Shown here: positions 3,633 through 24,141 of the stretch, piece by piece
Layout: every line of letters begins with the position of its first letter
Position numbering within the stretch: position 1 is the first letter of the stretch
NCBI GenBank assembly: GCA_964588985.1
Contig: CAZPQW010000005.1
Location: 32,001-96,000 of the forward strand
DNA: 64,000 bases
Reading direction: 5' to 3'
Source: an uncultured Solirubrobacteraceae bacterium
GTDB lineage: Bacteria > Actinomycetota > Thermoleophilia > Solirubrobacterales > Solirubrobacteraceae
Translations under genes and position numbers: made by a program
Notes under the pieces: generated by a model
The model's input: only the letters and a program-made list of their open reading frames with translations
Databases searched by the model: none
What the model was told of the DNA's origin: nothing

Positions 3633-3692
3633 CCGCACCAAAGATAGAAGCCAGCGGCGGGGCGGGTACAGAACGGTCGAACTGACGCCCCG

Positions 3693-6600: not shown

Positions 6601-7091
6601 GTTACGCTGTTGATCAACGAGATCGCTGATTCGCTTGGAGCGGATACTTCAATCGCCAGCGACGGCGCATACCCATTCGCGCCAGCCGAATATTCTTCTT
6701 CTTCTTCGCTGACCGCTCCCAAGCTTTCGTTCAGCGTGCACACTACGAGCGCCGCTTCGACTTCAGCACAGCTCCACTGCCCTCCCTCGTGTCCTCCTTG
6801 ACCTTCAAAGCCAGTCATCGTCAAACCTTTCGGCAGATGATCTGTCAACGTGACTTCACCTGAAGAAGGTCCACTACCAGTGTTGCTAACGATGATCTGA
6901 TAGCGATTTCCAGATGATGGAAGAAACTGTGAAGGCTGCGCTACCCCGCGCACACTCCAAGCAACAGCCCCAAGCCCGACCGCCGGAATCACTAGAAAGC
7001 CTGTCAGCAGCAATAGCACCGCGCCAGCACCCAAGCCCACACGCCGCACCAAACCGCCATCGCTTACGCTCGTCGTGCTCATCCAGATCAC
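3693..7091 (-). CDS. Large secreted multidomain beta-rich protein (DUF11-like N-terminal domain, Cys pairs, basic C-terminal tail), function unknown
   Basis: N-terminal hydrophobic signal; YQIIVSNTGSGPSSGEVTLTDHLPKGL resembles DUF11; repeated CP..S.VG modules and PT/VxC motifs; ends KPKPKPHRPKPRK; start overlaps upstream stop (GTGA). Confidence 0.75.
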   Translation of the reverse strand: MIWMSTTSVSDGGLVRRVGLGAGAVLLLLTGFLVIPAVGLGAVAWSVRGVAQPSQFLPSSGNRYQIIVSNTGSGPSSGEVTLTDHLPKGLTMTGFEGQGGHEGGQWSCAEVEAALVVCTLNESLGAVSEEEEEYSAGANGYAPSLAIEVSAPSESAISLINSVTVTGGGASGGATTSQSTPVGTGPQSFEITEFSMEVNNAKGEPEQQAGGHPWQVTTSLAFPWMYEPANPQHVRFMQVENVKKISVELPIGMVGNLLSTERCTQVQLFHGQCPRGSRVGTLAIAAGKFETADYHTTTQGNPSPVFNVVSEPGYPAVLGFTFASQTVYLYATVVHSASGNRVRLTTVGVPPVLETGDVMLTLWGEPGVFDETGSSAALITDPVDCSAASDEARVEVETWESPGQVKTQATTPFHRISGCTALQAAFTPSLSFSPLTGVEGATRADAPSGFQGTVSVPQTTAFEEVAVPEMRDISATLPAGVSISPAAAQGLEGCRERGSEGINLGTNSIGPGGRDEGNPEATELGAGHAGGNSSLYDDNQYHTAPGHCPAASTIGSVEVFTPLLENRCGEEPLPACDVGESPAPLQGHVYLAQPRCGGQDQPECTAGDADDGMLFAGFVELSGNGVLIKEPTSISVDQITGRVTVHLNEASDFPFSELKLRVHGGQRAVLATPQVCGVATSTASFTSWSSSEPFAPTPTAFTVDADGAGGICPTRWPFTPGFTSGSVSTAAAGSTSFTTTLTRQDREQNVTGLSVTPPLGLLAMLSNVTPCPESQAATGECPGSSLIGHDTAGAGSGSEPFYVSGRVYLTGPYKGAPFGLDVVTPAVAGPFNLGNIVVRATINVNPSTAAVTITSDPIPQSRLGVPLRLKALNVTIDKEHFVLNPTNCSQQEVKGVATGDRGATAALSTPFAVTGCAGLGFSPVLKVSTPGKASKKNGAGLSVTFTATSGQANIEKVKVDVPKQLPSRLATLQKACIDTVFNANPAGCPAASVVGSAVLHTPILKSAMTGPIYLVSHGGAAFPDLVFVLQAEGITIELDGNTNIKHGITSETFRAVPDAPFTSFTATFPQGPHSILATYLPARAKYSLCGQKLAMPASITGQNNAVITRTTKLTVTGCSKPKPKPHRPKPRK

Positions 7092-9310
7092 CCATTGCCC
7101 TTTGCCTTGACACTGCCAAACCGTTTCCTCACCACCGCTTCACACACCCGGCGCTTCCGACCCAATCCATGAGCCCTTCTACATGCGCGCAACGCTTTCG
7201 TGAGCCTTTCGCCCCCCAACACGCTCCGAGACCGTGATCGCGGTGACATACCGGCCACGGCCGACGGCACGTTGCCGCCTCCCGATACCTGCATACTTTC
7301 GGGGGCGCCCAAGATCGCGGCAGGACTAGCTGTCCCCTGGCATGACAATTCCTTTTCACAATCGCTGACGACACCCAACGCCGGGAACCCGCCATCATCG
7401 CGCGCGTCATATATATCTTCCTGCGTATCGCGATCAGACAGGACCATCGGCGCCTGCGTCAGGAAGAATACATCTTCGCCCAAAGCGTCTGTTCCCCATG
7501 CCGTAGCTTCGAACTGGCCACTACCACCTGAGACCCAGAAGACTTCTCCATTTGACAGCACTCCCCCACTGCTGCGGTACTCATACACGCTCGGCTGCCC
7601 CGCTTCACCCACCGCCTTTGCGGCTTTGGTCAATCCGCCGGTGCTCTCGAACACCACCACTGACCCGTTGTTCGATATCGCTAGACGAATCGTAGCGCTC
7701 TTCACCCGTTGTGCTCGAGTGTAACCTAGCGGCGCCGTGATAGTCCCACCGCTTGCATCAGCGCTTTCCATACCGGCAACATAATTTGCTTCACCGACAG
7801 AAATCCGCACCAGTTCTTCCCGAGCAGAGTCATACTCGTACACCTGTTTTGCACCGCTGCTGCCATCGTTTGTCAAGTCAGCCAGGCTCTGGAACACCAC
7901 GAACCGCCCATCCGGAGTTGTCTGCACCGGACGCACGTCTTTGCCTTGCCAGTCCTGCTGATCTTCTTCTGACAGTGTTGCCACGAACGATACATGCCCG
8001 GTTGGCTGGGTTGCGTCGCGCTCGAAGACATACAAGTTCTCGCCACCTGCAGATGGTTCCCCGCCTTCTGCGTTTGGCCCCGCAGTCAAAGCCCCCTTCG
8101 CCACGAAGTACACATGCGAGCCATCCTCAGACACTCGCGCCACGCCCTGGACTTCGGGATCACCTGAGCCCACTGACACCCGTATCAGCTTATGACCAGG
8201 CCGATCATGAACATCATACTCATACAAGTTGGCGCCCGTGGCCCCTTTGAACAATTCCTGAGTTGTCAAGAACAACGCTTTTGAACCATCCTGTGACGCA
8301 CCCATAAATTCGGCCGCCGCCCGTTCCCCTGTTATCTGGCAAGCTTCACAGTCCGCGCTGCTGGGCTCAGAGATCGCGACGGTATGCGTCTGCCCCACTC
8401 GTGCGTACACTTCATTCACTTCCGGCGCATGTACGGTTTCACATTCATTTCGGCTGAGCGCGGTGAAATACACCGTTTCGCCATTCGCAGAGACGGCGTT
8501 ATAGGTATCCGCGTCGTGGCCCCCTGGCGAGATATCCGAACCCAACGACGTGCCGCAGTCGCTGATTAGTCGCCCTCCATCGTCAACACCTACCAGCAGC
8601 GGCTGTCTGTTTTCCGTTCCCACATACTCGTACAGCGAAAGCTGTCCGTTATTATGAAGAGTCGTATCATAAGGCCACAGTGGCCCTTCTCCTCTGATCT
8701 GAAAGAACACGTGTGATAGATCACTAGACGCCCCAGTATAGAGAACTTCGCTGAAGTCGCCGAAGACCTGTGATCCGCCCGCTGGTGGACCTTCGGTTGC
8801 AGAAGGCGGCAACATCGAGCCCACCTTTACGAATGATCCGTTCGGTTCACGTACCGCTAGATCCTCGGCTGCAACGGCCTGCGAAGCTTGCCGTACGGCC
8901 CACAACCCCTTGTTGAGATTTGGATTGAAGTCCAGAAATTCTTGCGCCGGATACACTTGGGAGGGAGGGCTAATTGCAGATGTCTTCCATCCCGTACTGG
9001 ACCAAACCGAGTGGTAGATCGTCTCTGCAAATTCGCCATAGCCTTCAGCGCCAGCAAAGACCGCGATTGAAGTGCCGACTATCTGAGACCCATCGCTTGA
9101 GATAGCTTCGGGCACCACGCGGGCGCCCGCCTTGAAGCCGGGCGTCACCCGCTCGTAGCCACCGCAACCAGGAAGGTATCGACTAAATCCCACAAAGCCA
9201 TAGTTTGGACAACTGGCCTTGCTTTGAGCGACCGTGAGGCTCATGAGAAGAAGCGCGCACAGCAAGCACGCCATTGCATCCTTACGACGCACTATGAGTT
9301 TGGCTGGCAT
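7088..9310 (-). CDS. Secreted TolB/WD40-like beta-propeller protein with basic Cys-containing C-terminal helix pair
   Basis: Repeated blades ISSDGSQI, ASSDLSHVFF, VSANGETVYF, ASQDGSKALF, VSEDGSHVYF, TTPDGRFVVF, ISNNGSVVVF; signal peptide; ATG 9310 preceded by AGAGAGG. Confidence 0.8.
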   Translation of the reverse strand: MPAKLIVRRKDAMACLLCALLLMSLTVAQSKASCPNYGFVGFSRYLPGCGGYERVTPGFKAGARVVPEAISSDGSQIVGTSIAVFAGAEGYGEFAETIYHSVWSSTGWKTSAISPPSQVYPAQEFLDFNPNLNKGLWAVRQASQAVAAEDLAVREPNGSFVKVGSMLPPSATEGPPAGGSQVFGDFSEVLYTGASSDLSHVFFQIRGEGPLWPYDTTLHNNGQLSLYEYVGTENRQPLLVGVDDGGRLISDCGTSLGSDISPGGHDADTYNAVSANGETVYFTALSRNECETVHAPEVNEVYARVGQTHTVAISEPSSADCEACQITGERAAAEFMGASQDGSKALFLTTQELFKGATGANLYEYDVHDRPGHKLIRVSVGSGDPEVQGVARVSEDGSHVYFVAKGALTAGPNAEGGEPSAGGENLYVFERDATQPTGHVSFVATLSEEDQQDWQGKDVRPVQTTPDGRFVVFQSLADLTNDGSSGAKQVYEYDSAREELVRISVGEANYVAGMESADASGGTITAPLGYTRAQRVKSATIRLAISNNGSVVVFESTGGLTKAAKAVGEAGQPSVYEYRSSGGVLSNGEVFWVSGGSGQFEATAWGTDALGEDVFFLTQAPMVLSDRDTQEDIYDARDDGGFPALGVVSDCEKELSCQGTASPAAILGAPESMQVSGGGNVPSAVAGMSPRSRSRSVLGGERLTKALRACRRAHGLGRKRRVCEAVVRKRFGSVKAKGNG

Positions 9311-9351
9311 TGTGACCTCTCTTTGAGCATAAGGCAATGAGCCGTATAGCG

Positions 9352-9384
9352 GTGCAGGGCTGCGGAACCACCACAGCCCTGCAC
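9352..9384 (-). terminator. Intercistronic 11-bp stem-loop (attenuator / mRNA stabiliser)
   Basis: GTGCAGGGCTG-N11-CAGCCCTGCAC perfect inverted repeat between the small secreted gene and the beta-propeller gene; no strong U-tract. Confidence 0.65.
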
Positions 9385-9407
9385 GAGTTGGAAGCTATTG
9401 AGATACC

Positions 9408-10154
9408 TTATTGTGTAAAGACACCCCAATTCACTGGTCCACTAGCTAAGTCCACTAACAGTAAGGCCGTACCCTTTAGATTTGCGGCAAGCCCGAATGC
9501 TTTCATGCCTGATTTGACGGAGGTCAAGACTCCTTCTTTTTCGAGCCAGATGGTGGAGCCTACGTTGTCGAAGGTGACTTCTCCATGTGTTTTTTCGGTA
9601 CCGGCACCGGGCTGTACGTTAACACCGCCCACTCTTGCTAAGCCGATTACAGTTCCTTCCACGCTAGTGGTTGGGAATGTACATGTACCAGAAAATTTGA
9701 CAGTTACGAAGACCTTGCCCGTATCTGGCGCGAACAACACTAATATAGGTCCGCCACGCGTTTCCGAAGCATAGCCGAGTAAGTTTACGACTAAGTTCGT
9801 TTGGATTTTTTCGTTTTCAACAGTGCATGCTTCGCCGTTTTTTTCCTGCGTGCAGCCACCAAATGCGATGGCCTCTAAGCTAGTGCCGCCATTTTTGCCG
9901 GCGCTTCCGATGATCTGCATCTCGGATCCAATAGGAAGTGATGTGGTTTTGCAGGTGATGACCGGACCAGCAGCCGCAGTAAGGATGAAATTTTCCTTTG
10001 CAGAAGCTAAGAGTAAACGGGTTTCACCTGCTCCCAGTCGACTCCCCTCTACCTTCCAAAACGGTCCTTCCACAGCCGACGCCGCCGTAGCCGCTATCGC
10101 GCTAAACGCGAAGATAGCCACGAGCGCCAGCCCCATTAATTTGATGCGAGTCAT
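9408..10154 (-). CDS. Small secreted beta-rich protein with 4 Cys (putative fibre/pilin-like subunit)
   Basis: Signal peptide MTRIKLMGLALVAIFAFSAIAATAASA; strong SD AAGGAG; Thr/Gly/Val-rich; homologous by eye to 12799..13458. Product is inference. Confidence 0.75.
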   Translation of the reverse strand: MTRIKLMGLALVAIFAFSAIAATAASAVEGPFWKVEGSRLGAGETRLLLASAKENFILTAAAGPVITCKTTSLPIGSEMQIIGSAGKNGGTSLEAIAFGGCTQEKNGEACTVENEKIQTNLVVNLLGYASETRGGPILVLFAPDTGKVFVTVKFSGTCTFPTTSVEGTVIGLARVGGVNVQPGAGTEKTHGEVTFDNVGSTIWLEKEGVLTSVKSGMKAFGLAANLKGTALLLVDLASGPVNWGVFTQ

Positions 10155-10740: not shown

Positions 10741-12399
10741 CTAGCCGCCCGCGCCGAGTCGGTACGCGACGAGCGTCGGCGTCTGCCCAGCGGCGAGCCC
10801 CACGCCCGCCGGCGCGATCAACGTGCCGCCGCTCACCGCCACCCCGGTGTTCGTTCCCGCCGGAAGTTGCTTCTGCCACACGAGCGCTCCGGAGCTCGCT
10901 TCATACCCGTACACCGATCCTTCAAAGGTCGTGGCGAATACCAGGTCGTTGACCGACGTGGTCGCGCCAAACGCCGGCCCCGGGAGCTTGTGGTCCCACC
11001 TGACCGCGCCGGTCGCCGCATCCAGAGCCACGACTTCGCCCGTCGTGGGGCCGTTTTCCTGGATTTCGCCCTGGCTTTCCATCGTCGCGGAGTGATTGAC
11101 CACGGGCACGAACACCATCGACCCGTTGCTCGACATCGGTGCGATCACGCCCCCCAGCTGCCCTGGGTAGACCGTCTCCGGCAGGCTCAGCTTCGAGTAT
11201 TCGCCGCGCAGCGCGTACAGGTTGTCGTTGTCGTGGCCGTTGTGGATCCCCACCGGGCGCTTCCACAGCAGCTTGCCAGTGGCGCTGTCGAGGGCGATCA
11301 CGACCCCGCCCTTGCCCGCCGCGATGACCTCGTGATGGCCTCCGGCGTTCACCAGGATCGGCGGGTCCTGCAGGTCCCAGTCGTAGATGTCGTGGGGCGT
11401 CAGCTGGTAGTACCACTCGAGCTTGCCCGTCTTCGCGTCGAGCTTGACGATCGAATCCGTGTAGAGGTCCGGACCGGGCCTGCTCGAACCCCACGGGAAT
11501 TCGTTCGTCCCCGGGAACGGCGCCGGGTTGGCCGTGCCGATATACATCGAACCCTGTTCGTCGAAGGACGGGGTGTACCAAAGGCCTCCGCCCGAGTTGA
11601 TCGACTTGTTGTTCGCGGACCATAGGTCTTCCGGCGCCGTGTCGAAGTGCCATAGCCTCTTGCCCGTGCTCGCGTCGAGCGCCCACATGACACCCTGACC
11701 TTCGCCTCCGTAGTACTTCGCCACGTTGCCCGGCACCGTTGCCACGTACACGATCCCGTCGTGGTAACCCGGAGCCATGTCGATGCCCTCGTGTTCGTTG
11801 CGCACGAGCGTCACCGACCAGAGTTGTTCGCCGGTCTTCTCGTCGAGCGCGAACGCGGCCGACGGGGTCGCGCCATACACGCGCCCGCCCGCCACGACGA
11901 GCCCGTTGGGTCCCTGGTCGGGCTGTTCGTAGCTCTTCGACCACAGCACCCTGCCCGTCTTCAGGCTGACGGCCTGGACGTTGGACGCCAGGTCCTGGGA
12001 GAAGATCACGCCGTTGCTGATGATAGGCGAGGAGGAGTAGCTGCCGTACTGGCTCTTCGCCTTCAAGGGAGTGCTCCACGCGACCCCCAACTTCGACACC
12101 GTCGCGCTGTCGATCGGACCAGCCACATGACGCGTGTTCGAAAGGTCCACGTTGGGATAGCCGGAGCCCGTGAGCTGAAGGTGCTCGGACGGCGTCGAGG
12201 ACGATGACAAGAGCAGCACGATCGCCACGATGGCGGCCACTATCACCACGGCCAAGGCGCCCCATATACGCCAGCCAAGTTTCGCGATCGCCTCGCGAAC
12301 CCCGGAGAAGTCGCGTCCAGCAGGCCGAGCGGGAGCGCCGCGCTTCTGCTTGCGGCGTGCGTCGGCGCGGCGTGCTTGGCGTGAGCGAGAGGGTGACAT
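10741..12399 (-). CDS. Membrane-anchored PQQ-binding-like beta-propeller (quinoprotein dehydrogenase-like)
   Basis: One N-terminal TM helix; repeated ALDxxTGxxxW tryptophan-docking motifs; GGGLWYTPSFD, YIGTANP, DLYTDSIVKLD, HDIYDWD motifs as in quinoprotein dehydrogenases. Confidence 0.8.
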   Translation of the reverse strand: MSPSRSRQARRADARRKQKRGAPARPAGRDFSGVREAIAKLGWRIWGALAVVIVAAIVAIVLLLSSSSTPSEHLQLTGSGYPNVDLSNTRHVAGPIDSATVSKLGVAWSTPLKAKSQYGSYSSSPIISNGVIFSQDLASNVQAVSLKTGRVLWSKSYEQPDQGPNGLVVAGGRVYGATPSAAFALDEKTGEQLWSVTLVRNEHEGIDMAPGYHDGIVYVATVPGNVAKYYGGEGQGVMWALDASTGKRLWHFDTAPEDLWSANNKSINSGGGLWYTPSFDEQGSMYIGTANPAPFPGTNEFPWGSSRPGPDLYTDSIVKLDAKTGKLEWYYQLTPHDIYDWDLQDPPILVNAGGHHEVIAAGKGGVVIALDSATGKLLWKRPVGIHNGHDNDNLYALRGEYSKLSLPETVYPGQLGGVIAPMSSNGSMVFVPVVNHSATMESQGEIQENGPTTGEVVALDAATGAVRWDHKLPGPAFGATTSVNDLVFATTFEGSVYGYEASSGALVWQKQLPAGTNTGVAVSGGTLIAPAGVGLAAGQTPTLVAYRLGAGG

Positions 12400-12798
12400 T
12401 GGACTCCAGAGGGTCGATTGGCGTTGCGGGACGGACCGCGCTCAGCGGTCGTCGGATCGTGTGGCCACGGTAATTCCCAGCCCCCACAGAGTCAATGTTT
12501 TGGAACTTTTGTTTCTGTCCTTTTTGGCATGTACCCACGCAATGCGCCGGATTGGTTGGAGACAAAATCAGCAAGCTTAGGTCGCTTGTGCGAACCCCTG
12601 AGATATGAGCAGCGGTCTGATTAGTGGGACACATCGCTTTCCCTACACCACGTACGTGGTTATGGTGCGTGCAGCGTTACACGTTCCATGATCTACAGCA
12701 CTTCTGTAAATCCGACGCTACACAAACTCGACTTCACCAGCACCAGTGCGGGCGAGGACGAGCAGGTGGGAACAAACAATCAATGAAGGAGAGAGCGG

Positions 12799-14880: not shown

Positions 14881-17490
14881 CTACTCGGCGGCCTCCTCGG
14901 CCAGCTCCACCTCGACCGCGGGCTCGTCCGACTCCTCCATCTCGACCAGCGCGATCGAGCCGGCCTCGCGCAGATCCCCCACCCCCAGCTCGAGCGCCGC
15001 CAGGCACTCGGCGCTGTTGCGCACCAGCACGCGTGCGACCGGCGCGCGCATCTTGCGTCGCGCCTCGGACTTGGCCTTGCGGACATCGCTCAGCACCGCC
15101 GCGGTCAGCGTCAGGGCCGTCTCCTCGCGCTCGCGCTCCGGGCTCGAGCCGGCCGTCTCCAGCTCGCCGGCGTCCGGCCACGGCGCGCGGTGCACCGAGC
15201 CCTCCTGCCACCACGACCACACCTCCTCGCACACGAACGGCAGGAACGGCGCGAACAGGCGCTGGAAGACCGAAAGCGACAGACGCAGCGCGAGGCTCAC
15301 CGACGCGCTCACCCCCGGATCGGGGTCGTAGCGGCGACCCTTCACGAGCTCCAGGTAGTAGTCGCAGTACCACCAGAAGAAGCTCTCCGCGCGCTCGAGC
15401 GCGCGTGCGTAGTCGTAGTCCTCGAAGCTCTTTGTCGCCTCCGCCGCGACGCCCGCCAGGCGCGCGATCAGCGCCCGGTCGAGCGGGTGCGTCAGCGCCT
15501 CGCCCTGCGGCGGCAGGTCCGCGAGCGCGAACTTCGACGCGTTCAGCAGCTTCACCGCCAGGCGCCGCCCGACCTTCATCTGCTGCGCGTCGAACGCCGT
15601 GTCGGTGCCAGGCCGGCCGTTCGCCGCCCAGTAGCGCACCGCGTCCGCGCCGTACTCCTCCAGCAGGTGCATCGGCGTGACCACGTTGCCCTTCGACTTG
15701 GACATCTTCTTGCGGTCCGGGTCCAGCACCCACCCCGAGATCGCCGCATTGGACCACGGCAGCTCGCCCTCATCCAGGTGCGAGCGCAGGATCGTCGAGA
15801 ACAGCCATGTGCGGATGATGTCGTGGGCCTGCGGGCGCACGTCCATCGGGAACACCTTCGCGAACAGCTCCGGATCCTCGCCCGCCTGCCCCGCGATCTG
15901 CGGCGTCAGCGAGGACGTCGCCCAGGTGTCCATCACGTCTGGGTCGCCCGCGAAGCCGCCCGGCTGCCCGCGCTGGGAGGGCTCGTAGCCTTCGGGGACG
16001 TCCGTCGAGGGGTCCACCGGCAGCTGCCCCTCGCGCGCGGGAAGCGGCTGCTCGTGGCGAACGTTGCCGTCAGCGTCGATCGGATACCAGATCGGGAAGG
16101 GCACGCCGAAGAAGCGCTGGCGGCTCACGCACCAGTCGCCCGTGAGGCCGTTTACCCAGTCCTCGAAGCGCGCGCGCATGTAGGGCGGGTGCCACTTCAG
16201 CTCCTGCCCGCGCGCGATCAGCTCGTCGCGGTGCTCGATCGTGCGGATGAACCACTGCCTGCTCGTGACGATCTCGACCGGCCGCTCGCCCTTCTCGAAG
16301 AACTTCACCGCGCGCGTCACCGGCTGGGGCTCGCCGATCAGCTCGCCCGACTCCTCCAGCAGCTCCACGATCCGCTTGCGCGCCTGGTTCACCGTCCGGC
16401 CCTCCAGCTCCGCGTAGCTCGCCCGCGCGCGCTCGAGGTCCTCCGACTCCCAGCCGGGCGCGCCCCACGGCGCCGCCACCAGGCGCCCGTCCGGGCCGAG
16501 CACCGAGCGCACCGGCAACGACAGCTCACGCCACCACGTCACGTCGGTGAGGTCGCCGAAGGTGCACACCATCACCAGGCCCGTGCCCTTGTCCTGCTCC
16601 ACCAGCGGGTGGGCGAGCACCGGCACGCGCGTGCCGAACAGCGGCGTCAGCGCCTCGCCGCCCACCAGGTCGCGGTGTCGAGGGTCGTCCGGGTGGGCGA
16701 GCAGCGCCACGCACGCGGGGATCAGCTCGGGGCGGGTCGTCTCGATCAATGCCTCGCCAGCTCCGCCGCCGGCCACGCCGAAGCGCACGCGGTGCATCGC
16801 GCCGGGGCGCTCGCGATCCTCGAGCTCCGCCTGCGCCACCGCGGTCTGGAAGTCCACGTCCCACAGCGTCGGCGCCTCCAGCTGGTAGGCGGCGTCGCGC
16901 TCGAGCAGGCCGAGGAACGATCTCTGCGAGATCCGCTGGGCGAGCCTGCCAATCGTGGTGTACGTCATCGACCAGTCGACCGACAGCCCCAGCGTGCGCC
17001 ACAGCGCCTCGAACGCCTGCTCGTCGCTCTCTGTCAGCTGGAGACACAGCTCCACGAAGTTCGGGCGCGACACAGACACCGGCTCCTTCTCCGACGGCGT
17101 GGGAAGGGCGGGCAGTCGATTCAAGAACTCGGCGTCATACGGAACGGACGGGTCGCAGCGCACGCCGAAGTGGTTCTGCACGCGGCGCTCGGTCGGCAGG
17201 CCGTTGTCGTCCCAACCCATCGGGTAGAAGACCTCCATGCCGCGCATCCGCTGGTAGCGAGCCACCGCGTCGGTGTGCGTGTAGGAGAACACGTGACCCA
17301 CGTGCAGAGAGCCGCTCACCGTCGGCGGCGGCGTGTCGATCGAGAACACCCGCTCGCGTGCGGCGCCGCGATCGAAGCGGTAGGTCCCGTCGCGCTCCCA
17401 CGCGGCGCTCCACTTCGCCTCCAGGCCGTCGAGCGTGGGGCGCTCGGGCACGCGCGCGTCGGATGGGTTCTGTGCGGGTTGCGTGGACAA
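14881..17490 (-). CDS. valS: Valine--tRNA ligase (actinobacterial/archaeal type)
   Basis: SIDTPPPTVSGSLHVGH, GWDDNGLPTE, DWCVSRQRFFG, DVMDTWATSS, KMSKS. TTG 17490 preferred because TACGAT lies 7 nt upstream; ORF track extends to 17550. Confidence 0.95.
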   Translation of the reverse strand: MSTQPAQNPSDARVPERPTLDGLEAKWSAAWERDGTYRFDRGAARERVFSIDTPPPTVSGSLHVGHVFSYTHTDAVARYQRMRGMEVFYPMGWDDNGLPTERRVQNHFGVRCDPSVPYDAEFLNRLPALPTPSEKEPVSVSRPNFVELCLQLTESDEQAFEALWRTLGLSVDWSMTYTTIGRLAQRISQRSFLGLLERDAAYQLEAPTLWDVDFQTAVAQAELEDRERPGAMHRVRFGVAGGGAGEALIETTRPELIPACVALLAHPDDPRHRDLVGGEALTPLFGTRVPVLAHPLVEQDKGTGLVMVCTFGDLTDVTWWRELSLPVRSVLGPDGRLVAAPWGAPGWESEDLERARASYAELEGRTVNQARKRIVELLEESGELIGEPQPVTRAVKFFEKGERPVEIVTSRQWFIRTIEHRDELIARGQELKWHPPYMRARFEDWVNGLTGDWCVSRQRFFGVPFPIWYPIDADGNVRHEQPLPAREGQLPVDPSTDVPEGYEPSQRGQPGGFAGDPDVMDTWATSSLTPQIAGQAGEDPELFAKVFPMDVRPQAHDIIRTWLFSTILRSHLDEGELPWSNAAISGWVLDPDRKKMSKSKGNVVTPMHLLEEYGADAVRYWAANGRPGTDTAFDAQQMKVGRRLAVKLLNASKFALADLPPQGEALTHPLDRALIARLAGVAAEATKSFEDYDYARALERAESFFWWYCDYYLELVKGRRYDPDPGVSASVSLALRLSLSVFQRLFAPFLPFVCEEVWSWWQEGSVHRAPWPDAGELETAGSSPEREREETALTLTAAVLSDVRKAKSEARRKMRAPVARVLVRNSAECLAALELGVGDLREAGSIALVEMEESDEPAVEVELAEEAAE

Positions 17491-17711
17491 GCCGCTGATC
17501 GTATCCGCCACCGCCGGAGGCGACTCGATTTCGCCGTTTAGGGTTGACAACAGTCTGCGCTCAGACCCCGTTGCATGGCAAAGCTTTCATGAGAATTCTC
17601 TTATTCGCGCGTATCCGACATTACATGGGGGTAGTCTGGCCCCGTCTGGGGAACAAGTACGGAGTCGCAAGGGAGAGCGGTGAGCGGGGGGATGGCGACT
17701 TGAGCGTGTTC

Positions 17712-18374
17712 ATGAAGAAGCTCCTCGCCGTTGGCGGGGCGGTCGTAGCCATCGGCGTTCTCATCGGCCTGTACGTGGCCGACTGGGCCACGACCCAGCC
17801 GACTGCCGTTGCCTCCTCCGTCGCGACACCGCCCAACAGCGGTGGAACACAGCTCACCCTGGAGACCGTCGCGGCGATCGGCCCCAAGTACGAGCCCTCG
17901 CACCCCGACTGGGTGTCCTACCTAGTGCGGAAGAACGGCCAGTGGGTCCACAGCACGATCTACACCGTGCCCGCCAACTCGATCGTCCACGTCACCGTCT
18001 ACCAGTACGACGGCGACAGCGGCCTGCGCAACCCGTTCCTCTCGCAGGTACAGGGAACGGTCGGCGGGACCGAGGTCGTGGACGGCAAGACGATCAACTC
18101 GATCGACCCCGAAGAAGCGTCCCACACCTTCGTAATCCCCGATCTCGGTGTGTTCGTCCCGCTTCCGGGCGTCGCCGAAGAAGCCAAGAACCAGTGCGAA
18201 TTCGCGCCCTGCGAAGGCGCCGCGCATCGCACGATCGAATTCAGCTTCAAAACGGGCAAGAAGGGCCGCTACCGCTGGCAGTGCTTCGTCCCGTGCGCCG
18301 CCGGCTACCTCGACGGCTTCGGCGGCCCGATGCAGACGCTGGGATACATGGACGGCTTCATCAATGTCGTCTAG
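17712..18374 (+). CDS. Membrane-anchored cupredoxin-like protein heading the oxidase operon
   Basis: N-terminal TM; YTVPANSIVHVTV, SHTF, FSFKTGKKGRYRWQCFVPC...GPM...YMDGFINV: cupredoxin C-terminal strand pattern with His, Cys-x3-Cys and Met candidates. Start ATG 17712 chosen by eye. Confidence 0.7.
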   Translation: MKKLLAVGGAVVAIGVLIGLYVADWATTQPTAVASSVATPPNSGGTQLTLETVAAIGPKYEPSHPDWVSYLVRKNGQWVHSTIYTVPANSIVHVTVYQYDGDSGLRNPFLSQVQGTVGGTEVVDGKTINSIDPEEASHTFVIPDLGVFVPLPGVAEEAKNQCEFAPCEGAAHRTIEFSFKTGKKGRYRWQCFVPCAAGYLDGFGGPMQTLGYMDGFINVV

Positions 18375-19227
18375 ACCCGTCTCCTCTGGCCAGCTGCCCG
18401 GCGAACCGAACCACGCACGGCGCTTCACCACGATCTGGCTGATCGCGACGCTGATCGCCCTGCCGCTGGTGATCTTCGTGCTCGGGCCCGAACTGCCGCC
18501 GGGCAACGCCAGCCAGCAGGCCGCCGGCAAGGTCACCGACAACACGGTGCTGCTCGCGATGGCCACGCCCGTGCTGCTGCTCGTGACGATCTACCTGATC
18601 TACGCGGTGATCGCCTTCCGCCAGCCCGCCGGCGGCGCGCTCGAAGGACCCGCCGTGCGCGGCGACTCGCGCATCCAGACGGCGTGGATCGTGATCACCT
18701 CGGCGCTCGTGCTCTCACTCGCCGCCTACGGCACCGTGCGACTGGAGGCCGACAACGGCGCCGGCTCGGGCAACGGGCCGAAACCGCTGACCGTGCCAAG
18801 CGGCCCCAAGCTGCCGGTGCAGGTGATCGCGCAGCAGTGGGCGTTCACCTACCGCTACCCCACCTACGGCGGCGTCGAGACCACGCACCTGTACCTGCCC
18901 GACAACGAGACGATCGAACTGCACGTCACCTCGATCGACGTGATCCACTCCTTCTGGGCCTACCAGCTCGGCGTCAAGGCCGACGCGAACCCCGACGTCG
19001 ACAACGTCGCGTTCGTCAAGCCCACCAAGCTCGGCGCCTTCGACGTGCGCTGCGCCGAGCTGTGCGGCATCTGGCACGGCTACATGTACGACAAAGGCCA
19101 CGTCGTCACGCCGAGCGAATTCGCAACGTGGATCGCCCAGCAGCAGAAGCAGATGGCGCCCGCGACGAAGGTCCTGCCCCCGTACAGCACCACCTACCTC
19201 CCCGAACCGACGAGGCGCGCAGAATGA
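18364..19227 (+). CDS. coxB: Cytochrome c oxidase subunit II (CuA)
   Basis: Two TM helices, QQWAFTYRY, DVIHSFW, CAELCGIWHGYM CuA motif; no fused cytochrome c (no CxxCH). Confidence 0.92.
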   Translation: MSSRPVSSGQLPGEPNHARRFTTIWLIATLIALPLVIFVLGPELPPGNASQQAAGKVTDNTVLLAMATPVLLLVTIYLIYAVIAFRQPAGGALEGPAVRGDSRIQTAWIVITSALVLSLAAYGTVRLEADNGAGSGNGPKPLTVPSGPKLPVQVIAQQWAFTYRYPTYGGVETTHLYLPDNETIELHVTSIDVIHSFWAYQLGVKADANPDVDNVAFVKPTKLGAFDVRCAELCGIWHGYMYDKGHVVTPSEFATWIAQQQKQMAPATKVLPPYSTTYLPEPTRRAE

Positions 19228-21128
19228 GCACGACCGCAGCGGCCGCATCCGCCCCCCAGCCCACCGGCAGGCCGCTGTGGCGGCGGCTGATCGGCTTCAA
19301 CCTGCTCACCGCGGTGATCCTCGGCGTCGCCGGCTACTACGTCGGCGCGCTCATCGGCCACACGATCGACGGCGGAAAAAGCTTCGAATACCAGGCGGCG
19401 ACCGACGAGTACGACCTCGCGCTGCTGCTCGGCTACTTCGGCGGCGTGGTCGGCTTCCTGATCGGCCTCGGCTTCGCCAACTACCCGATCTCGCGGATGC
19501 TCGGGCGCCCAGCGTCGCTACGCGAGAAGGAGGAGCAGGGCATCGGGCGCTACTTCGGCCTGTGCACCGACCACAAGGTCGTCGGCATCCAGTACCTCGT
19601 CGGCATCGGCGTGTTCTTCTTCGTCGGCGGCCTCAACGCGATGCTGATCCGCACCGAGCTGCTGCACCCCGTCCCCACGTTCGTCGGACCCAACCAGTAC
19701 CTGTCGATCGTCGGCATGCACGGCACGATGATGATGGGAATGATGACCTCGGGCATCCTCGGCCCGTTCGCCAACTACTTCGTGCCGATCATGATCGGCG
19801 CCCGGCGGATGGCCTTCCCCCGCATCGAGGCGCTCACGTTCTGGCTGCTGATGGCCGCCGGCTTCATTCTCACCTCGACGATCTTCTTCGGCGGCTTCCC
19901 CACCGGCTGGACGGGCTACGCGCCGCTCAACAACGAGGCCGTCATGGGGATGGACTCCTACATCTGCTTCTTCGCGCTCGTCGGTCTCTCGATGGCGCTG
20001 CTCGGCCTGAACATGATGGCCACGATCATCACGATGCGCGCACCGGGGCTCACCTGGTCACGGCTGCCGATCTTCGTGTGGTCGGTGTTCGCCACCTCCG
20101 TGCTGATGGTGCTCGCCGCGCCGATGCTCGTCGCCACGCTTTTGATGGCGGCGCTCGACCGCACGATCAACACCTCGTTCTTCATCGCCGGAGGCGGCGG
20201 CAGCTCCTACCTGTTCGAGAACCTGTTCTGGTTCTTTGGGCACCCCGAGGTCTACATCCTCGCGCTGCCGGGCTTCGGCATCGTGCTCGAGCTGCTGCCG
20301 GTGTTCACGCGCAAGCCTCTGTGGGGCTACCGCCTCGCCGTCTCGGGGATGCTCGGCGTCAGCCTGATGAGCTTCTTCGTGTGGCAGCACCACCTGTTCG
20401 TGAGCGGCATCAACGCCGACCTGCGCCCGTTCTACATGCTCTCAACCGAGATCATCTCGATCCCCACCGGGTTCATCTTCATGTGCGTCATGGGCACGCT
20501 GTGGAAGGCGCGAACATCATTCACCGTGCCGATGATGTTCGTCCTCGCGTGGACGTTCAACTTCCTCATCGGCGGGCTCTCCGGCGTGTTCCTCTCCGAC
20601 ACGCCCAGCGACACCGACACGCACGGCAGCTTCTTCGTGATGGCGCACTTCCACTACACGATCATGGGTGGGCTGATCTTCGCGTTCTTCGCCGGGATCT
20701 ACTACTGGGTGCCGAAGATGCTCGGCCTGCGCCTCAACGAGAAACTCGGCAAGGTGCACTTCTGGCTGATGTTCGTCGCGTTCAACTCCACGTTCATGCC
20801 GCTGTTCGCGCTCGGCATGGAGGGCATGCCCCGGCGCGTGAGCACCTACTCCCCGGCGCTGCAGACGCTCAACGTGTGGGTGTCGATCTCCGCGTTCGTG
20901 CTCGGGCTCTCGATGCTGATCTTCCTCTACAACGTCGTCTACTCGCTGATCTTCGTGCGCAAGGCCGCCACGGCCAACCCGTGGAACTCGAAGGCGATGG
21001 AGTGGCAGGTGCCGACCCCGGTGCCGGTCAACAACTTCGAGCAGATCCCCGTGTTCGACTCCGATCCCTACGACTACGGGATCCCGATCTCCGTGGGCGC
21101 CGGCCAGCCGGCCGCGGCGGGAGCGTAG
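19224..21128 (+). CDS. coxA: Heme-copper oxidase subunit I (A-family GHPEVY type, atypical proton channels, extra N-terminal helices)
   Basis: TDHKVVG, MHG, WFFGHPEVY, WQHH, AHFHY, GMPRR; ATG 19224 overlaps coxB stop (ATGA). Confidence 0.95.
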   Translation: MSTTAAAASAPQPTGRPLWRRLIGFNLLTAVILGVAGYYVGALIGHTIDGGKSFEYQAATDEYDLALLLGYFGGVVGFLIGLGFANYPISRMLGRPASLREKEEQGIGRYFGLCTDHKVVGIQYLVGIGVFFFVGGLNAMLIRTELLHPVPTFVGPNQYLSIVGMHGTMMMGMMTSGILGPFANYFVPIMIGARRMAFPRIEALTFWLLMAAGFILTSTIFFGGFPTGWTGYAPLNNEAVMGMDSYICFFALVGLSMALLGLNMMATIITMRAPGLTWSRLPIFVWSVFATSVLMVLAAPMLVATLLMAALDRTINTSFFIAGGGGSSYLFENLFWFFGHPEVYILALPGFGIVLELLPVFTRKPLWGYRLAVSGMLGVSLMSFFVWQHHLFVSGINADLRPFYMLSTEIISIPTGFIFMCVMGTLWKARTSFTVPMMFVLAWTFNFLIGGLSGVFLSDTPSDTDTHGSFFVMAHFHYTIMGGLIFAFFAGIYYWVPKMLGLRLNEKLGKVHFWLMFVAFNSTFMPLFALGMEGMPRRVSTYSPALQTLNVWVSISAFVLGLSMLIFLYNVVYSLIFVRKAATANPWNSKAMEWQVPTPVPVNNFEQIPVFDSDPYDYGIPISVGAGQPAAAGA

Positions 21129-21132
21129 AGCG

Positions 21133-21798
21133 ATGGCCGCCCACGGCGAAGACCGCCCTCTCGGCATGATGATCCCGCCGGTGCCGGCCGGCACGGAGAT
21201 CCCGCCCGAGCCGCCGGACGTCGGCGCGCGCGCGCTCGCGGTCGCCTCGCGGCTGCTGTGCGGCGCCACCACGTTCTTCTTCCTCGCGTTCCTGTTCGCG
21301 TACTTCTACCTGCGCTCGATCAACGAGGACCACATGTGGCACCCCGCGCACGTCAACCCCAGCCAGGGGCTCGGCGCGGCGTTCATCGTGTGCGTCGTGC
21401 TCAGCGCGGCGCTCGCGATCGTCGCGAGCCGCGGGATGAAGGCCAAATCGCAGGGCTGGGTCACGCCGGGGATCGCGAGCGTCGTGCTCGGGCTGATCGC
21501 GGTGGCCCTGCAGTGCCTGGAGTACACCTCGCAGCACTTCGGGCCCACCAACGGCGCCTACGCGAGCGTGTTCTGCGCGTGGAGCGGCTTCTACCTGATC
21601 GCGGTGCTCGCCACGATGTACTGGCTCGAGACACAGGTGGCGACCGAGCTGCGGGCGCGCCGTTCACCCGCGAGCAAGGAGGGCGACATCAAGGACCCCG
21701 ACCGTCTGATCGCGCCGGGGCTCGACGCCGCCGTCTTCTACTGGGGCTTCCTCGCGGCGATCGGCGTCATCACTTACGTGACGCTGTACCTGCTGTAG
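21133..21798 (+). CDS. coxC: Cytochrome c oxidase subunit III-like (5 TM)
   Basis: FFFLAFLFAYFYLR, LQCLEY...GAYASVF..WSGF, FYWGFL pattern of divergent subunit III; operon position. Confidence 0.75.
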   Translation: MAAHGEDRPLGMMIPPVPAGTEIPPEPPDVGARALAVASRLLCGATTFFFLAFLFAYFYLRSINEDHMWHPAHVNPSQGLGAAFIVCVVLSAALAIVASRGMKAKSQGWVTPGIASVVLGLIAVALQCLEYTSQHFGPTNGAYASVFCAWSGFYLIAVLATMYWLETQVATELRARRSPASKEGDIKDPDRLIAPGLDAAVFYWGFLAAIGVITYVTLYLL

Positions 21799-22673
21799 TG
21801 CTCGCGCCGGCGGCAGCCGCGCCGGGCTTCTGGGATTGGTCGCTGGATCCGCCGCTCGTGCTCGTCGTGGCGCTCGCGATCCTCTACTGGATCGGCGACC
21901 GGCGCACCGTCACGCCGGAGCGCACGCGGACCGCGCAGCGGTGGCGCAGCGCCTGCTTCTACACCGCCCTGGTCGCGCTCGCCGTCGCGCTCGCCTCCCC
22001 GATCGAGCCGCTGAGCGAGCAGCTCTTCTGGGTGCACATGATCCAGCACGTGCTGCTGCTCGCCGTCGCGGCGCCGCTGCTCGTCACCGCCCGCCCGTGG
22101 ATCCGCCTGTGGCGCAGCCTCCCGCTGGACGCGCGGCGGTGGCTCGCGCGCGGCCTCAGCGAGGGCCGGCGCACCTCGCCGTTGCGGGCGCTCAGCCGCG
22201 CGCTCGGGAGCCCGACAGCGGGCTTCGTGGCGTTCTCCGTCGTGCTGCTCGCGTGGCACCTGCCGTTCATGTTCGACGCCACGCTGCGCTTCGAAACGCT
22301 GCACGCGCTCGAGCACACGCTGTTCTTCTCAACCGCGGTGATGTTCTGGAAGCACGCGATCCCCTCCCCGCCGTTGCACACGCCACTCGTGGCCGTCCAG
22401 CGGGTGGTGTTCGCGATCGGAGGGATGATCGTCAGCTGGGTACTCGCGGTCGTGCTCGCGCTCGCCCCCAACCCGCTCTACGCCTCCTATGCCCATGAGG
22501 CGAGCCGCCCCGGCGGCATCTCCGCGCTCGCCGACCAGCAGTTGGCGGCGGGCATCATGTGGGTGCCCGGGTCGGTCACGTTCCTGATCGTCGTCTTCGT
22601 CTACGTCCACCGCTGGCTCACGCCGGATGCCCTGGGCAGCGCCAGGGGCACCCGACTGGCCAGCGAGCACTAA
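21798..22673 (+). CDS. ctaG: Caa3-type CtaG cytochrome c oxidase assembly factor
   Basis: LFWVHMIQHVLLLAVAAPLL, WHLP, HALEH, DQQLAAGIMWVPG; GTG 21798 overlaps coxC stop. Confidence 0.88.
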   Translation: MLAPAAAAPGFWDWSLDPPLVLVVALAILYWIGDRRTVTPERTRTAQRWRSACFYTALVALAVALASPIEPLSEQLFWVHMIQHVLLLAVAAPLLVTARPWIRLWRSLPLDARRWLARGLSEGRRTSPLRALSRALGSPTAGFVAFSVVLLAWHLPFMFDATLRFETLHALEHTLFFSTAVMFWKHAIPSPPLHTPLVAVQRVVFAIGGMIVSWVLAVVLALAPNPLYASYAHEASRPGGISALADQQLAAGIMWVPGSVTFLIVVFVYVHRWLTPDALGSARGTRLASEH

Positions 22674-22687
22674 CTCCAGGAGGACTC

Positions 22688-22822
22688 ATGCCACACCTCA
22701 TTCCCATCGCAGCGAGCTTCCTCACCGGTTCGATCCTCACGCTCGTGATGCCGCTCGCGGTCGTGATCCTGATCGCCGTCTGGTACTACGCGATGTGGCG
22801 GAGCGGGATGGGCGAACGCTGA
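22688..22822 (+). CDS. 44-aa single-TM protein, putative small oxidase subunit (CoxD-like)
   Basis: Strong SD AGGAGG 4 nt before ATG; MPHLIPIAASFLTGSILTLVMPLAVVILIAVWYYAMWRSGMGER; last gene of the oxidase operon. Confidence 0.65.
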   Translation: MPHLIPIAASFLTGSILTLVMPLAVVILIAVWYYAMWRSGMGER

Positions 22823-22823
22823 G

Positions 22824-23480
22824 CTACCCCGCCGCAAGCCGCGGCACGTCGTGCGCGATCTCACTCGGTTCGAACGAGTCGGGGTAGATCGTGGTGAGCT
22901 TCCCGCTCGCGCCGATGCCGTAGACGAGCGCGTCGTGGGCCACCAGCTGAGGCTGGCCGGCCTCGCGTTTGGAGCCGACGCTCCAGGCCTTCCACGTCCG
23001 TGCCAGTTCGGAGGCCGAGCCGATCAGGTACTGCATCCTGCCGACCATCTCGTGGGCGCGCACGAACCGCGCCACCGCCGCCGGCGTGTCTCCCCGCGGG
23101 TCGACCGACACCGCGATCACCTGCGCCTGCGAGGCCCGCTTGCCGAGCAGGTTCAGCGCGACGCGCAGGTTCGACGCGATCAGCGGGCACACGTCTGGGC
23201 AGTGGGCGTAGAGGAAGGTCACGAGCACCGCCCTGCCGCGGTACTCGGCGAGCGTGACCCGCTTTCCGAGGTAGTTGCGCAGGTCGATCGCCGGAGCCTG
23301 CTCGGCGGGGAGCGCGAGCGTCCCGTCGAAGCCACTCGCCGAAGCCGCCTGCTGTGCGCCGCCCGGCAGCACAGGCTTGTTGGCGGAGCCCTTGAAGAGC
23401 GCGAAGCTGAGCGCGGCGACGATTGCGAGCAGCAGCGCCAGTGCGGGCACTGCGCGCCGCCACGAGGGGGTTGAGCTCAT
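22824..23480 (-). CDS. SCO1/SenC family copper chaperone
   Basis: FLYAHCPDVCP (CxxxC), VSVDPRGDTP, conserved His in VAHD; N-terminal anchor. Confidence 0.9.
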   Translation of the reverse strand: MSSTPSWRRAVPALALLLAIVAALSFALFKGSANKPVLPGGAQQAASASGFDGTLALPAEQAPAIDLRNYLGKRVTLAEYRGRAVLVTFLYAHCPDVCPLIASNLRVALNLLGKRASQAQVIAVSVDPRGDTPAAVARFVRAHEMVGRMQYLIGSASELARTWKAWSVGSKREAGQPQLVAHDALVYGIGASGKLTTIYPDSFEPSEIAHDVPRLAAG

Positions 23481-23481
23481 G

Positions 23482-24141
23482 TCAGCTCATACTGACGTAA
23501 CCCGTCGCTTCGGTGGGGCCGCGCACGTTCGCCGCGACCTTGTTTTCGTAGTTGCCCTCGATCGTCGCGATCTGGCCGCTCGGCGTCACTTCCTTGACGA
23601 TCCCCACGTGCTGGTCGCCGAACACGATCAAATCGCCCGATTTCGGCACGACGCCGGGTGCGTTCGCGACCGCGCGGCCGCTGCTCTGCGCCCACGACCA
23701 GATCGCCGCGACCGAGCCGAGGCCCTGGCCGTTTTCGCCGATCGGCGTGCCCGCCTGGCTGGCCGCCCACGAGGCGAAGTAGGCGCACCACGGCTCTCCC
23801 GGGGCAGCTCCCGCCGTGGCCGTGCGGTACTGCGCGATCGCCGGCCCTTCGTTGGACCCGGGCGGCTGCTCGGTCTGGCCGAGCTGGCTTTCCGCGACCG
23901 CGACGATGCGGCTCGTGCCGCCGCCGGGGGTGTAGGCGAGGGATGGAACTCCCGTGGCCTGCTGAAGCGCGCTCGCGAACGACGTCGGGGTGCTCGCGGC
24001 GGCAGCGGTCGTGGTGGTGGCGCTCGTCGAGGGCGCTTCCACACCACCGCTCGGCGTGGTGCCCCTGCCGATCATCGAGGAGGGATCGGCGATCTCCTGC
24101 CTGATCGCGCCGACCCGCACCAGCGTGGATTCGATCGACAT
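23482..24141 (-). CDS. CHAP-domain peptidoglycan hydrolase under a sigma28-type promoter
   Basis: PWCAYFASW, PKSGDLIVF, HVGIV, TIEGN CHAP motifs; no Sec signal peptide. Confidence 0.85.
   Translation of the reverse strand: MSIESTLVRVGAIRQEIADPSSMIGRGTTPSGGVEAPSTSATTTTAAAASTPTSFASALQQATGVPSLAYTPGGGTSRIVAVAESQLGQTEQPPGSNEGPAIAQYRTATAGAAPGEPWCAYFASWAASQAGTPIGENGQGLGSVAAIWSWAQSSGRAVANAPGVVPKSGDLIVFGDQHVGIVKEVTPSGQIATIEGNYENKVAANVRGPTEATGYVSMS

Follow-up and report, generated by a model that had tools for sequence, protein, structure and literature searches.

A cupredoxin-like protein with a conserved His-Cys2-Met2 pattern encoded ahead of an aa3-type oxidase in Thermoleophilia

Oxidases with a CuA centre receive their electrons from a one-electron carrier at the outer face of the membrane, and typical actinobacteria feed an aa3 oxidase from the bcc complex. 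Here we describe an oxidase operon at positions 17712-23480 of a stretch of 64,000 nucleotides (the window) from an uncultured Solirubrobacteraceae bacterium (contig CAZPQW010000005.1), in which the first gene encodes a 220-residue cupredoxin-like protein, referred to as P0001. P0001 is predicted to be a membrane-anchored extracytoplasmic protein, and appears to be dedicated to an A-type, CuA-containing haem-copper oxidase. Judged from its sequence, its candidate ligand set fits no described class of copper site. From its fold, its conserved soft ligands and its linkage to coxB, we infer that it probably binds copper. Our preferred reading of its role, which we hold tentatively, is that it is a copper-binding extra subunit of the oxidase or a tethered donor, passing electrons to CuA.

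Described copper proteins that resemble P0001

The described protein whose gene position is most like that of P0001 is AcoP (also called Cup) of Acidithiobacillus ferrooxidans. Both are single-domain cupredoxins with an N-terminal transmembrane anchor, and acoP lies directly upstream of coxBACD (excerpts of PMC10654088), just as the gene for P0001 lies before coxB. AcoP interacts with the oxidase, and has been proposed to act as an electron donor and/or as a protector of its metal centres (excerpts of PMC10804444). An earlier note on this DNA likened the locus to the cup-coxBACD arrangement of iron oxidisers. The likeness in gene order stands, but it does not extend to a specific relationship with AcoP: profile comparison of the two proteins gave E-values of 0.13-0.9, and AcoP appeared only at rank 45 in the structural search with Foldseek (E 3.2e-3, template modelling (TM) scores 0.31/0.37). 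Kinship between the two is no closer than a shared superfamily fold. AcoP has the classical His-Cys-His-Met ligands with a CX6H loop (as described in the excerpts of PMC10804444), whereas P0001 has a second Cys and no second His. The rus operon, in which acoP is found, also encodes cytochromes c and rusticyanin (as described in the excerpts of PMC10654088), whereas the operon described here encodes neither.

In a profile search of the PDB sequences, the best matches of P0001 are the auracyanins A (E 0.0024) and B (E 0.0059) of Chloroflexus, in each of which the strand bearing the Cys ligand is aligned with the P0001 strand ending at C191. These matches are short (about 30-38 residues) and weak. 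Auracyanins are membrane-tethered type 1 cupredoxins that are thought to feed a terminal oxidase, and the P0001 family also occurs in Chloroflexota, namely in Ktedonobacterales. However, auracyanins have the arrangement Cys-x4-His-x4-Met, whereas P0001 has a Cys four residues past the first Cys, and no His. A further comparison is with PmoD of methane and ammonia oxidisers, a cupredoxin-like protein whose function was earlier obscure and which has an unusual CuA-type site. The PmoD site spans a homodimer, with one Cys contributed by each chain, whereas P0001 has both Cys in one chain, and occurs in the context of an oxidase rather than a monooxygenase. No sequence match between PmoD and P0001 was seen in any of the searches made.

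Two types of copper chaperone also share features with P0001. PCuAC has a cupredoxin-like fold, holds Cu(I) through His and Met, and acts together with Sco on subunit II (excerpts of PMC9145763). It differs in that PCuAC has no Cys ligands, and in that P0001 has no match to PCuAC or CtaK in Pfam or NCBIfam and lacks the motif H(M)x10Mx21HxM. Sco1/SenC proteins have a Cys-x3-Cys pair and a distant His, a single membrane anchor, and linkage to oxidase genes (excerpts of PMC9145763), all of which are also features of P0001. However, Sco1/SenC has a thioredoxin fold and P0001 a cupredoxin fold, and a genuine SCO gene adjoins the operon.

Family, fold and candidate metal site

Searches of Pfam, NCBIfam and the PDB sequences gave no match for P0001, and all source names seen for members of its family are "hypothetical protein". 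The family is nevertheless large. At E<=1e-3 there are 5363 clusters of relatives at 90% identity and 558 representatives at 50% identity, and a neighbourhood scan of a one-genome-per-species collection, using a 13-sequence alignment as query, found at least 592 loci. Close relatives come from Solirubrobacterales, Gaiellales and other Thermoleophilia. A distant branch, at 31-49% identity, is mainly from Ktedonobacterales (Chloroflexota), a label taken from the minority of its 120 rows for which an organism is named (in two further rows this name is Nitrososphaerota archaeon); the label Dormibacterota rests on a single Atlas cluster. We found no literature on a cupredoxin in Thermoleophilia oxidases or in Ktedonobacter, or on this family, within a limited library.

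Longer proteins with a P0001-like part were found as three singletons, two with acyl-CoA dehydrogenase domains and the third with no Pfam domain. We read these as artefacts of gene calling, and no fusion recurs. A 424-residue representative, P0237, has a fragment of Caa3_CtaG ahead of the cupredoxin part; this single sequence suggests that some contig has the gene order ctaG-cup.

The structure of P0001 was predicted using AlphaFold2, both at full length (55-row alignment) and as the domain alone (74 rows), with predicted local distance difference test (pLDDT) scores of 87.8 and 93.8, respectively. The full-length model has a helix at residues 2-27, a poorly ordered linker, and a β-sandwich at approximately residues 46-220. 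When the two models were compared with the PDB using Foldseek, every match listed has the cupredoxin fold, which bears out the fold assigned by the earlier note. For the full-length model there are 37 matches at E<=1e-3, led by rusticyanin (1rcy, E 5.9e-5) and subunit II of a ba3 oxidase (2qpe_B, E 9.9e-5). For the domain model there are three, the remaining matches having probabilities of 0.9-1.0; its matches include copper nitrite reductase, laccase domains, CyoA with an engineered CuA, rusticyanin, auracyanin and CoxB domains (E 5e-4 to 3e-3). The lowest root-mean-square deviations among the listed matches of the domain model are to subunit II domains, namely 1cyx (CyoA with engineered CuA, 4.4 Å), 5ndc_B (ba3, 4.8 Å) and 4w9z (CoxB, 5.0 Å). 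With TM-scores of only 0.35-0.49, the models describe a divergent cupredoxin that has no close solved relative.

P0001 contains both motifs quoted in the earlier note, SHTF and WQCFVPCAAGYLDGFGGPMQTLGYM, which provide the residues H138, C191, C195, M207 and M213. The count of two Cys given there has to be corrected, since the protein has four, at positions 162, 167, 191 and 195. In alignments of 36, 55 and 74 family sequences, which reach down to 31-35% identity and include the Ktedonobacterales branch, C191, P194, C195, M207, M213 and G215 are invariant, while H138, W189 and several loop glycines are at least 90% conserved. More widely, of the 314 fetched sequences containing C..PC, 300 retain the full pattern C..PC-x(7-18)-G.M-x3-G.M. 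Given the thousands of matching clusters and the retention of this motif, the pattern in P0001 is not a product of chance. In canonical cupredoxins the ligands are a His on an inner strand, a Cys at the end of the penultimate strand and a Met at the start of the last strand. In the full-length model of P0001, H138 lies in the strand 136-142, C191 comes immediately after the strand 185-190, and M213 immediately before the strand 214-219. These three residues are therefore predicted to occupy the canonical ligand positions.

It is worth considering in some detail how this pattern relates to CuA. P0001 resembles the COX2/CuA domain (PF00116) in having an N-terminal membrane anchor followed by a cupredoxin domain, although it has one membrane helix where COX2 has two. 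Alignment of P0001 with the CoxB of the same operon, using hhalign, pairs H138 with His195, C191 with Cys230, C195 with Cys234, and the Gly-Tyr-Met ending at Met213 with that ending at Met241, in the same register in both runs. The second His of CuA corresponds to L210 of P0001, a variable position; the Glu between the two CuA cysteines is absent; and an 11-residue insert between C195 and L210 bears the invariant sequence Gly-Gly-Pro-Met207. When the 25 residues that follow the Cys pair were scanned in three sequence sets, a His was present in 0 of 121, 14 of 72 and 7 of 119 sequences. P0001 gives no match to PF00116 at E<=0.1, and weak matches were seen for four of 55 family members (best E 5.7e-4) and for 14% of one related Atlas cluster.

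The alignments and motif counts agree with the earlier note that the residues are those of neither a type 1 site nor a canonical CuA site. The type 1 set (His, Cys, His, Met) is not found in P0001, an invariant Cys standing in place of the second His, and neither is the canonical CuA motif, His-x(n)-Cys-x-Glu-x-Cys-x3-His-x2-Met. The further claim, that this is a new type of copper site, holds in so far as the ligand set has no match among described classes; it is, however, not unrelated to what is known, in that it lies in the register of CuA. On the alignments, the site is best described as a CuA-derived His-Cys2-Met2 pattern, in which one His has been lost and one Met gained.

The loss of the second CuA His throughout the family raises the question of whether P0001 holds a metal at all. 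It could be a non-redox structural or stabilising subunit, a degenerate paralogue of the subunit II domain. Its Cys pairs would then be oxidised to disulfides, and its task would be to shield the CuA domain or hold it in position. Such a protein has a parallel in CyoA, the subunit II of quinol oxidase, which keeps the fold without copper and is among the best structural matches (1cyx, 7cub_B). Disulfides are moreover frequent in exported actinobacterial proteins, and members of the Thermoleophilia type have a second Cys pair, C162/C167. Against this, a structural role leaves unexplained why two Met and a His, invariant or nearly so, accompany the Cys pair at the canonical positions down to 31-35% identity, and the second Cys pair is dispensable, being found in none of 119 sequences of the Ktedonobacterales branch. 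We consider a structural role without metal decidedly unlikely.

The invariant C-x-x-P-C also brings to mind a thiol-disulfide oxidoreductase, which would keep the cysteines of CoxB CuA (or of SCO) reduced in the manner of TlpA of Bradyrhizobium. The linkage of P0001 to coxB and SCO would suit this, and many bacteria lack reductants of the TlpA type (excerpts of PMC9145763). However, the fold is that of a cupredoxin and not of a thioredoxin, and the invariant Met and His would have no function in such chemistry. We know of no precedent for a disulfide reductase with a cupredoxin fold, and regard this role as very improbable.

A second motif, Cys-x4-Cys-x4-His, is formed by C162, C167 and H172 (window positions 18195-18227), within a loop of confident prediction. 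All three are invariant across the 36 sequences of the Thermoleophilia type and absent in 119 of 119 of the Ktedonobacterales set, and therefore lie outside the core site. They may form a lineage-specific disulfide or a second metal site.

The operon, its neighbours and its conservation

The region holds seven genes, six on the forward strand and one convergent on the reverse strand. The gene for P0001 (17712-18374, forward), identified from its open reading frame (ORF) and translation, the structural models and the cupredoxin matches, is followed on the same strand by coxB, for oxidase subunit II (18364-19227; PF00116 COX2, E 2.3e-14; TIGR02866 below its cut-off), coxA, for an A-type subunit I (19224-21128; PF00115, E 1.2e-125), coxC, for a divergent subunit III (21133-21798; PF00510, E 1e-6), and ctaG, for a caa3-type copper assembly factor with a GTG start (21798-22673; PF09678 Caa3_CtaG, E 7.7e-50). 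The last forward gene is an ORF for a 44-residue hydrophobic, single-helix membrane peptide (22688-22822), with the strong ribosome-binding sequence AGGAGG 6 nt before its ATG. This peptide has no family match in Pfam or NCBIfam, and may be a small oxidase subunit. Converging with these is the gene for a SCO1/SenC copper chaperone (22824-23480, reverse; PF02630, E 4.8e-23), with the motif CPDVC (Cys94/Cys98). The coordinates and family matches agree with the gene order given in the earlier note. So does its observation on cytochrome c: when the translations were scanned, CxxCH was found in none of the seven proteins.

The gene for P0001 overlaps coxB by 11 nt, the coxB ATG lying inside the cupredoxin-like ORF; coxB ends and coxA starts within a common ATGA; and the coxC stop overlaps the ctaG GTG start by 1 nt. 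These junctions are those of a translationally coupled operon. In 17400-23600 no promoter-like site was found, and a single terminator-like site lies inside coxA; these are fewer than in shuffled sequences and carry no information on transcription.

The oxidase core is an ordinary one, of the aa3 type. CoxB has a complete CuA motif (H195, C230, E232, C234, H238 and M241), invariant in all 36 aligned sequences, and no cytochrome c domain; its closest solved chain is subunit II of Thermus caa3 (2yev_B, E 2.4e-17). Given the full CuA site, the oxidase takes its electrons from a one-electron carrier, for which P0001 is the only candidate in the operon. The closest solved chain to CoxA is mycobacterial CtaD (6adq_F, E 5.2e-128), aligned from residue 114 onward, and its translation contains GHPEV, which is the mark of A1-type oxidases.

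Both subunits are extended at the N-terminus. Residues 1-50 of CoxB (window positions 18364-18520) contain an extra hydrophobic helix, at about residues 21-41, followed by a conserved loop rich in Pro and Gly; this helix precedes both of the canonical COX2 membrane helices. Residues 1-113 of CoxA (19224-19565) form an extension with two extra hydrophobic segments, which is strongly conserved, many of its columns being invariant in all 36 aligned sequences. It has no counterpart among solved subunit I chains, for which the PDB matches begin at about residue 114. The extension may represent a small subunit that has become fused to CoxA, or else a surface on which the helix of the cupredoxin docks.

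The linkage of these genes was surveyed in the best 80 of the at least 592 loci, picked by similarity to P0001, in which the genes of the window were located by tblastn. The 80 loci are from Thermoleophilia or from loosely labelled actinobacterial metagenome-assembled genomes (MAGs), and several of the absences are due to contigs that break off early. In all 80, coxB lies directly downstream of the P0001 homologue, so that the association with oxidase operons expected by the earlier note is found throughout. It is followed by coxA in 79 (the single miss, L028, ends inside coxB), while coxC is found in 76, on the 3' side of coxA where inspected. Less constant are ctaG (67/80), a SCO-like gene within the flanks (47/80) and the 44-residue peptide, at the same position (45/80). 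In the distant loci (L055 onward), SCO often comes after ctaG, on the operon strand. The closest locus is from a Solirubrobacteraceae MAG, in which P0001 is 87% identical and valS lies upstream.

The median identity to the window protein is 69% for P0001, 69% for CoxB, 65% for CoxC, 59% for CtaG and 55% for SCO. Compared within single loci, P0001 shows higher conservation than CtaG in 48 out of 58, and than SCO in 33 out of 41. On these comparisons P0001 appears to evolve like a core subunit, unlike the adjacent assembly factors.

This bears on the most serious alternative to an electron-transfer role, namely that P0001 is a membrane-tethered Cu(I) chaperone that loads CuA (possibly CuB) together with SCO and CtaG, in place of PCuAC or CtaK. 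In such a role, its Cys2-His-Met2 residues might form a CuA-like cradle from which two coppers are delivered. Its conserved ligands are thiolates, thioethers and one His, much as in proteins that traffic Cu(I). Genes for SCO and Caa3_CtaG are found in the operon and its flanks, but none of the PCuAC or CtaK type, and Sco plus PCuAC or CtaK is generally required for CuA (excerpts of PMC9145763). The same excerpts give CXXXCXnH as the motif of Sco, which is also the arrangement of the Cys pair and distal His in P0001, and describe the PCuAC fold, too, as cupredoxin-like. AcoP, the closest positional analogue, has likewise been discussed as a chaperone-like protector of oxidase metal centres (excerpts of PMC10804444). 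On the other hand, the gene for P0001 stands first in the operon, in translational coupling with coxB and linked to it in 80 of 80 loci; the protein is slower-evolving than both CtaG and SCO; and it has neither a Pfam match to PCuAC (PF04314) or YtkA-type families nor the motif characteristic of PCuAC. The data accommodate a chaperone nearly as readily as an electron donor, and we consider a chaperone role possible though rather doubtful.

In the window, the operon is flanked upstream by valS and another class II tRNA synthetase gene, and downstream by a gene for a CHAP-domain protein, flagellin, and then a long flagellar cluster. In other loci valS is again upstream (34/80), and CHAP and flagellin genes are again downstream, with flagellin syntenic in 14 of 80. 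When the ORFs of the 80 loci were clustered, valS and the second tRNA synthetase were the only other neighbours to be widely conserved, and no cytochrome c, Rieske protein, multicopper oxidase or PCuAC was conserved in the 7-kb flanks.

These neighbours are relevant to the suggestion, made in the earlier note, that the operon serves the oxidation of an extracellular substrate such as Fe(II) or Mn(II). P0001 would then channel electrons from the metal to the oxidase in the style of the rus operon. The order cup-coxB-coxA-coxC is that of the rus operon, and CoxA and CoxB of Acidithiobacillus cluster with those of Chloroflexi, Actinobacteria and other phyla (both from excerpts of PMC10654088); rusticyanin is also the top Foldseek match of the full-length model. 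However, with the domain-only model rusticyanin scores no better than nitrite reductase, laccase or subunit II domains, and the similarity to AcoP is not significant. The Cyc2, Cyc1 and rusticyanin of the rus operon (as described in the excerpts of PMC10654088), and any CxxCH protein, are neither present in this operon nor conserved in the flanks of the 80 loci, and the same is true of multicopper oxidases; the neighbours in the window are instead tRNA synthetase and flagellar genes, with valS recurring upstream as noted above. The suggestion therefore finds no support in the surroundings of the operon, and we regard it as most improbable.

Among the distant loci L053-L080, an OmpR-type response regulator is encoded immediately upstream of the operon, on the opposite strand, in 15 loci, and a histidine kinase in 12, examples being L080:5762-6655 and L063:1491-3134. 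This hints at regulated expression in the distant lineages.

Some other features of the window may be recorded here. The flagellar cluster extends over 24419-59662 and includes flagellin, FlhB, FliP, FliM/N, MotA, FliI, FliG, FliF, FliD and FliS, together with a sigma factor, a second flagellin and FliW. At 10741-12441 (reverse) there is a gene for a 566-residue protein with PQQ-type β-propeller repeats (matching PF13360 and part of the PF01011 model, the latter at E 5.5e-40), which may be either a dehydrogenase or a BamB-like propeller; no link with the oxidase operon was seen in related loci. Three large ORFs of 1132, 749 and 248 residues lie at 3693-10154 (reverse), with a G+C content of 54-63%, compared to about 69% elsewhere, and have no Pfam or PADLOC match. 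They adjoin a gene at 1449-3692, for a 747-residue protein with two WYL/WCX/HTH_PafC modules. The region 3693-10154 may be acquired DNA.

Possible role and significance

The reading that we prefer, tentatively, is that P0001 takes part in electron transfer. Three arguments favour this: the oxidase requires a donor, for which no other gene is evident nearby; P0001 appears to evolve like a core subunit; and in a cupredoxin, Cys-x3-Cys builds the delocalised Cu2S2 core of CuA. In the proposed mechanism, copper would be held at the site formed by H138, C191, C195 and Met, as a binuclear CuA-like centre in which Met replaces one terminal His, or alternatively as a mononuclear Cys2-His-Met centre. 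P0001 would be an additional subunit, bound to the oxidase on its outer side, and, whatever the source of its electrons may be, would pass them in the direction of the CuA of CoxB. Its role would thus be comparable to that of the cytochrome c domain of caa3, actinobacterial QcrC, auracyanin, sulfocyanin or AcoP. A more specific proposal is that the family provides a natural binuclear CuA-type centre, His1-Cys2-Met2, which replaces cytochrome c as the donor to aa3 in Thermoleophilia and probably in Ktedonobacteria and Dormibacterota. In this full form we regard the proposal as unlikely.

Several points weigh against an electron-transfer role. Ligand sets rich in Cys and Met are typical of proteins that traffic Cu(I), and mononuclear bis-thiolate Cu(II) sites are seldom stable redox centres. 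With SCO and CtaG encoded in the operon but nothing of the PCuAC or CtaK type, a chaperone role is possible, as discussed above. A QcrC or other cytochrome c encoded elsewhere in these genomes would make a cupredoxin donor unnecessary. The hhalign match between P0001 and CoxB is statistically weak (E 0.011, with a probability of 3.9%, and E 0.092), and the proposed CuA register is accordingly a matter of pattern and not of significance. In both models the loop between C195 and M207 contains the stretch of lowest confidence (residues 196-205, pLDDT ~60), and the TM-scores to known cupredoxins, at 0.35-0.49, are below 0.5. The comparison of conservation is biased, in that the 80 loci were picked by similarity to P0001, and the gene context comes from genomes of the Thermoleophilia type only, leaving out the Ktedonobacterales and Dormibacterota members.

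Prediction of a complex of P0001 with CoxB (residues 51-262) and CoxA (18-585), using 36-row alignments, gave scores of 0.59, 0.64 and 0.00. Replacing the partner gave 0.00 and 0.00, and replacing CoxA gave 0.46, which is within 0.20 of the median; the prediction counts neither way.

Only a handful of classes of copper site serve electron transfer in biology, and every new set of ligands has shown something of how proteins tune copper. The P0001 family is large, strongly conserved and unannotated, and its invariant His-Cys2-Met2 pattern lies outside the known classes. P0001 is also small, with a soluble domain that is modelled with high confidence, and should be well suited to expression and spectroscopy. 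If it is a chaperone, it would represent a third unrelated route to the assembly of CuA, besides PCuAC and CtaK. If it is a donor, an aa3 oxidase would receive its electrons from a new redox centre, with no cytochrome c involved; and if the centre is a binuclear His1-Cys2-Met2 site, it would both add a class to the copper centres known in biology and open a way into a bacterial CuA oxidase that is independent of cytochrome c. The hosts of the family are mostly uncultivated soil bacteria, for whose respiratory chains we found no account of this gene, and Thermoleophilia, Ktedonobacteria and Dormibacterota are abundant lineages in soil.

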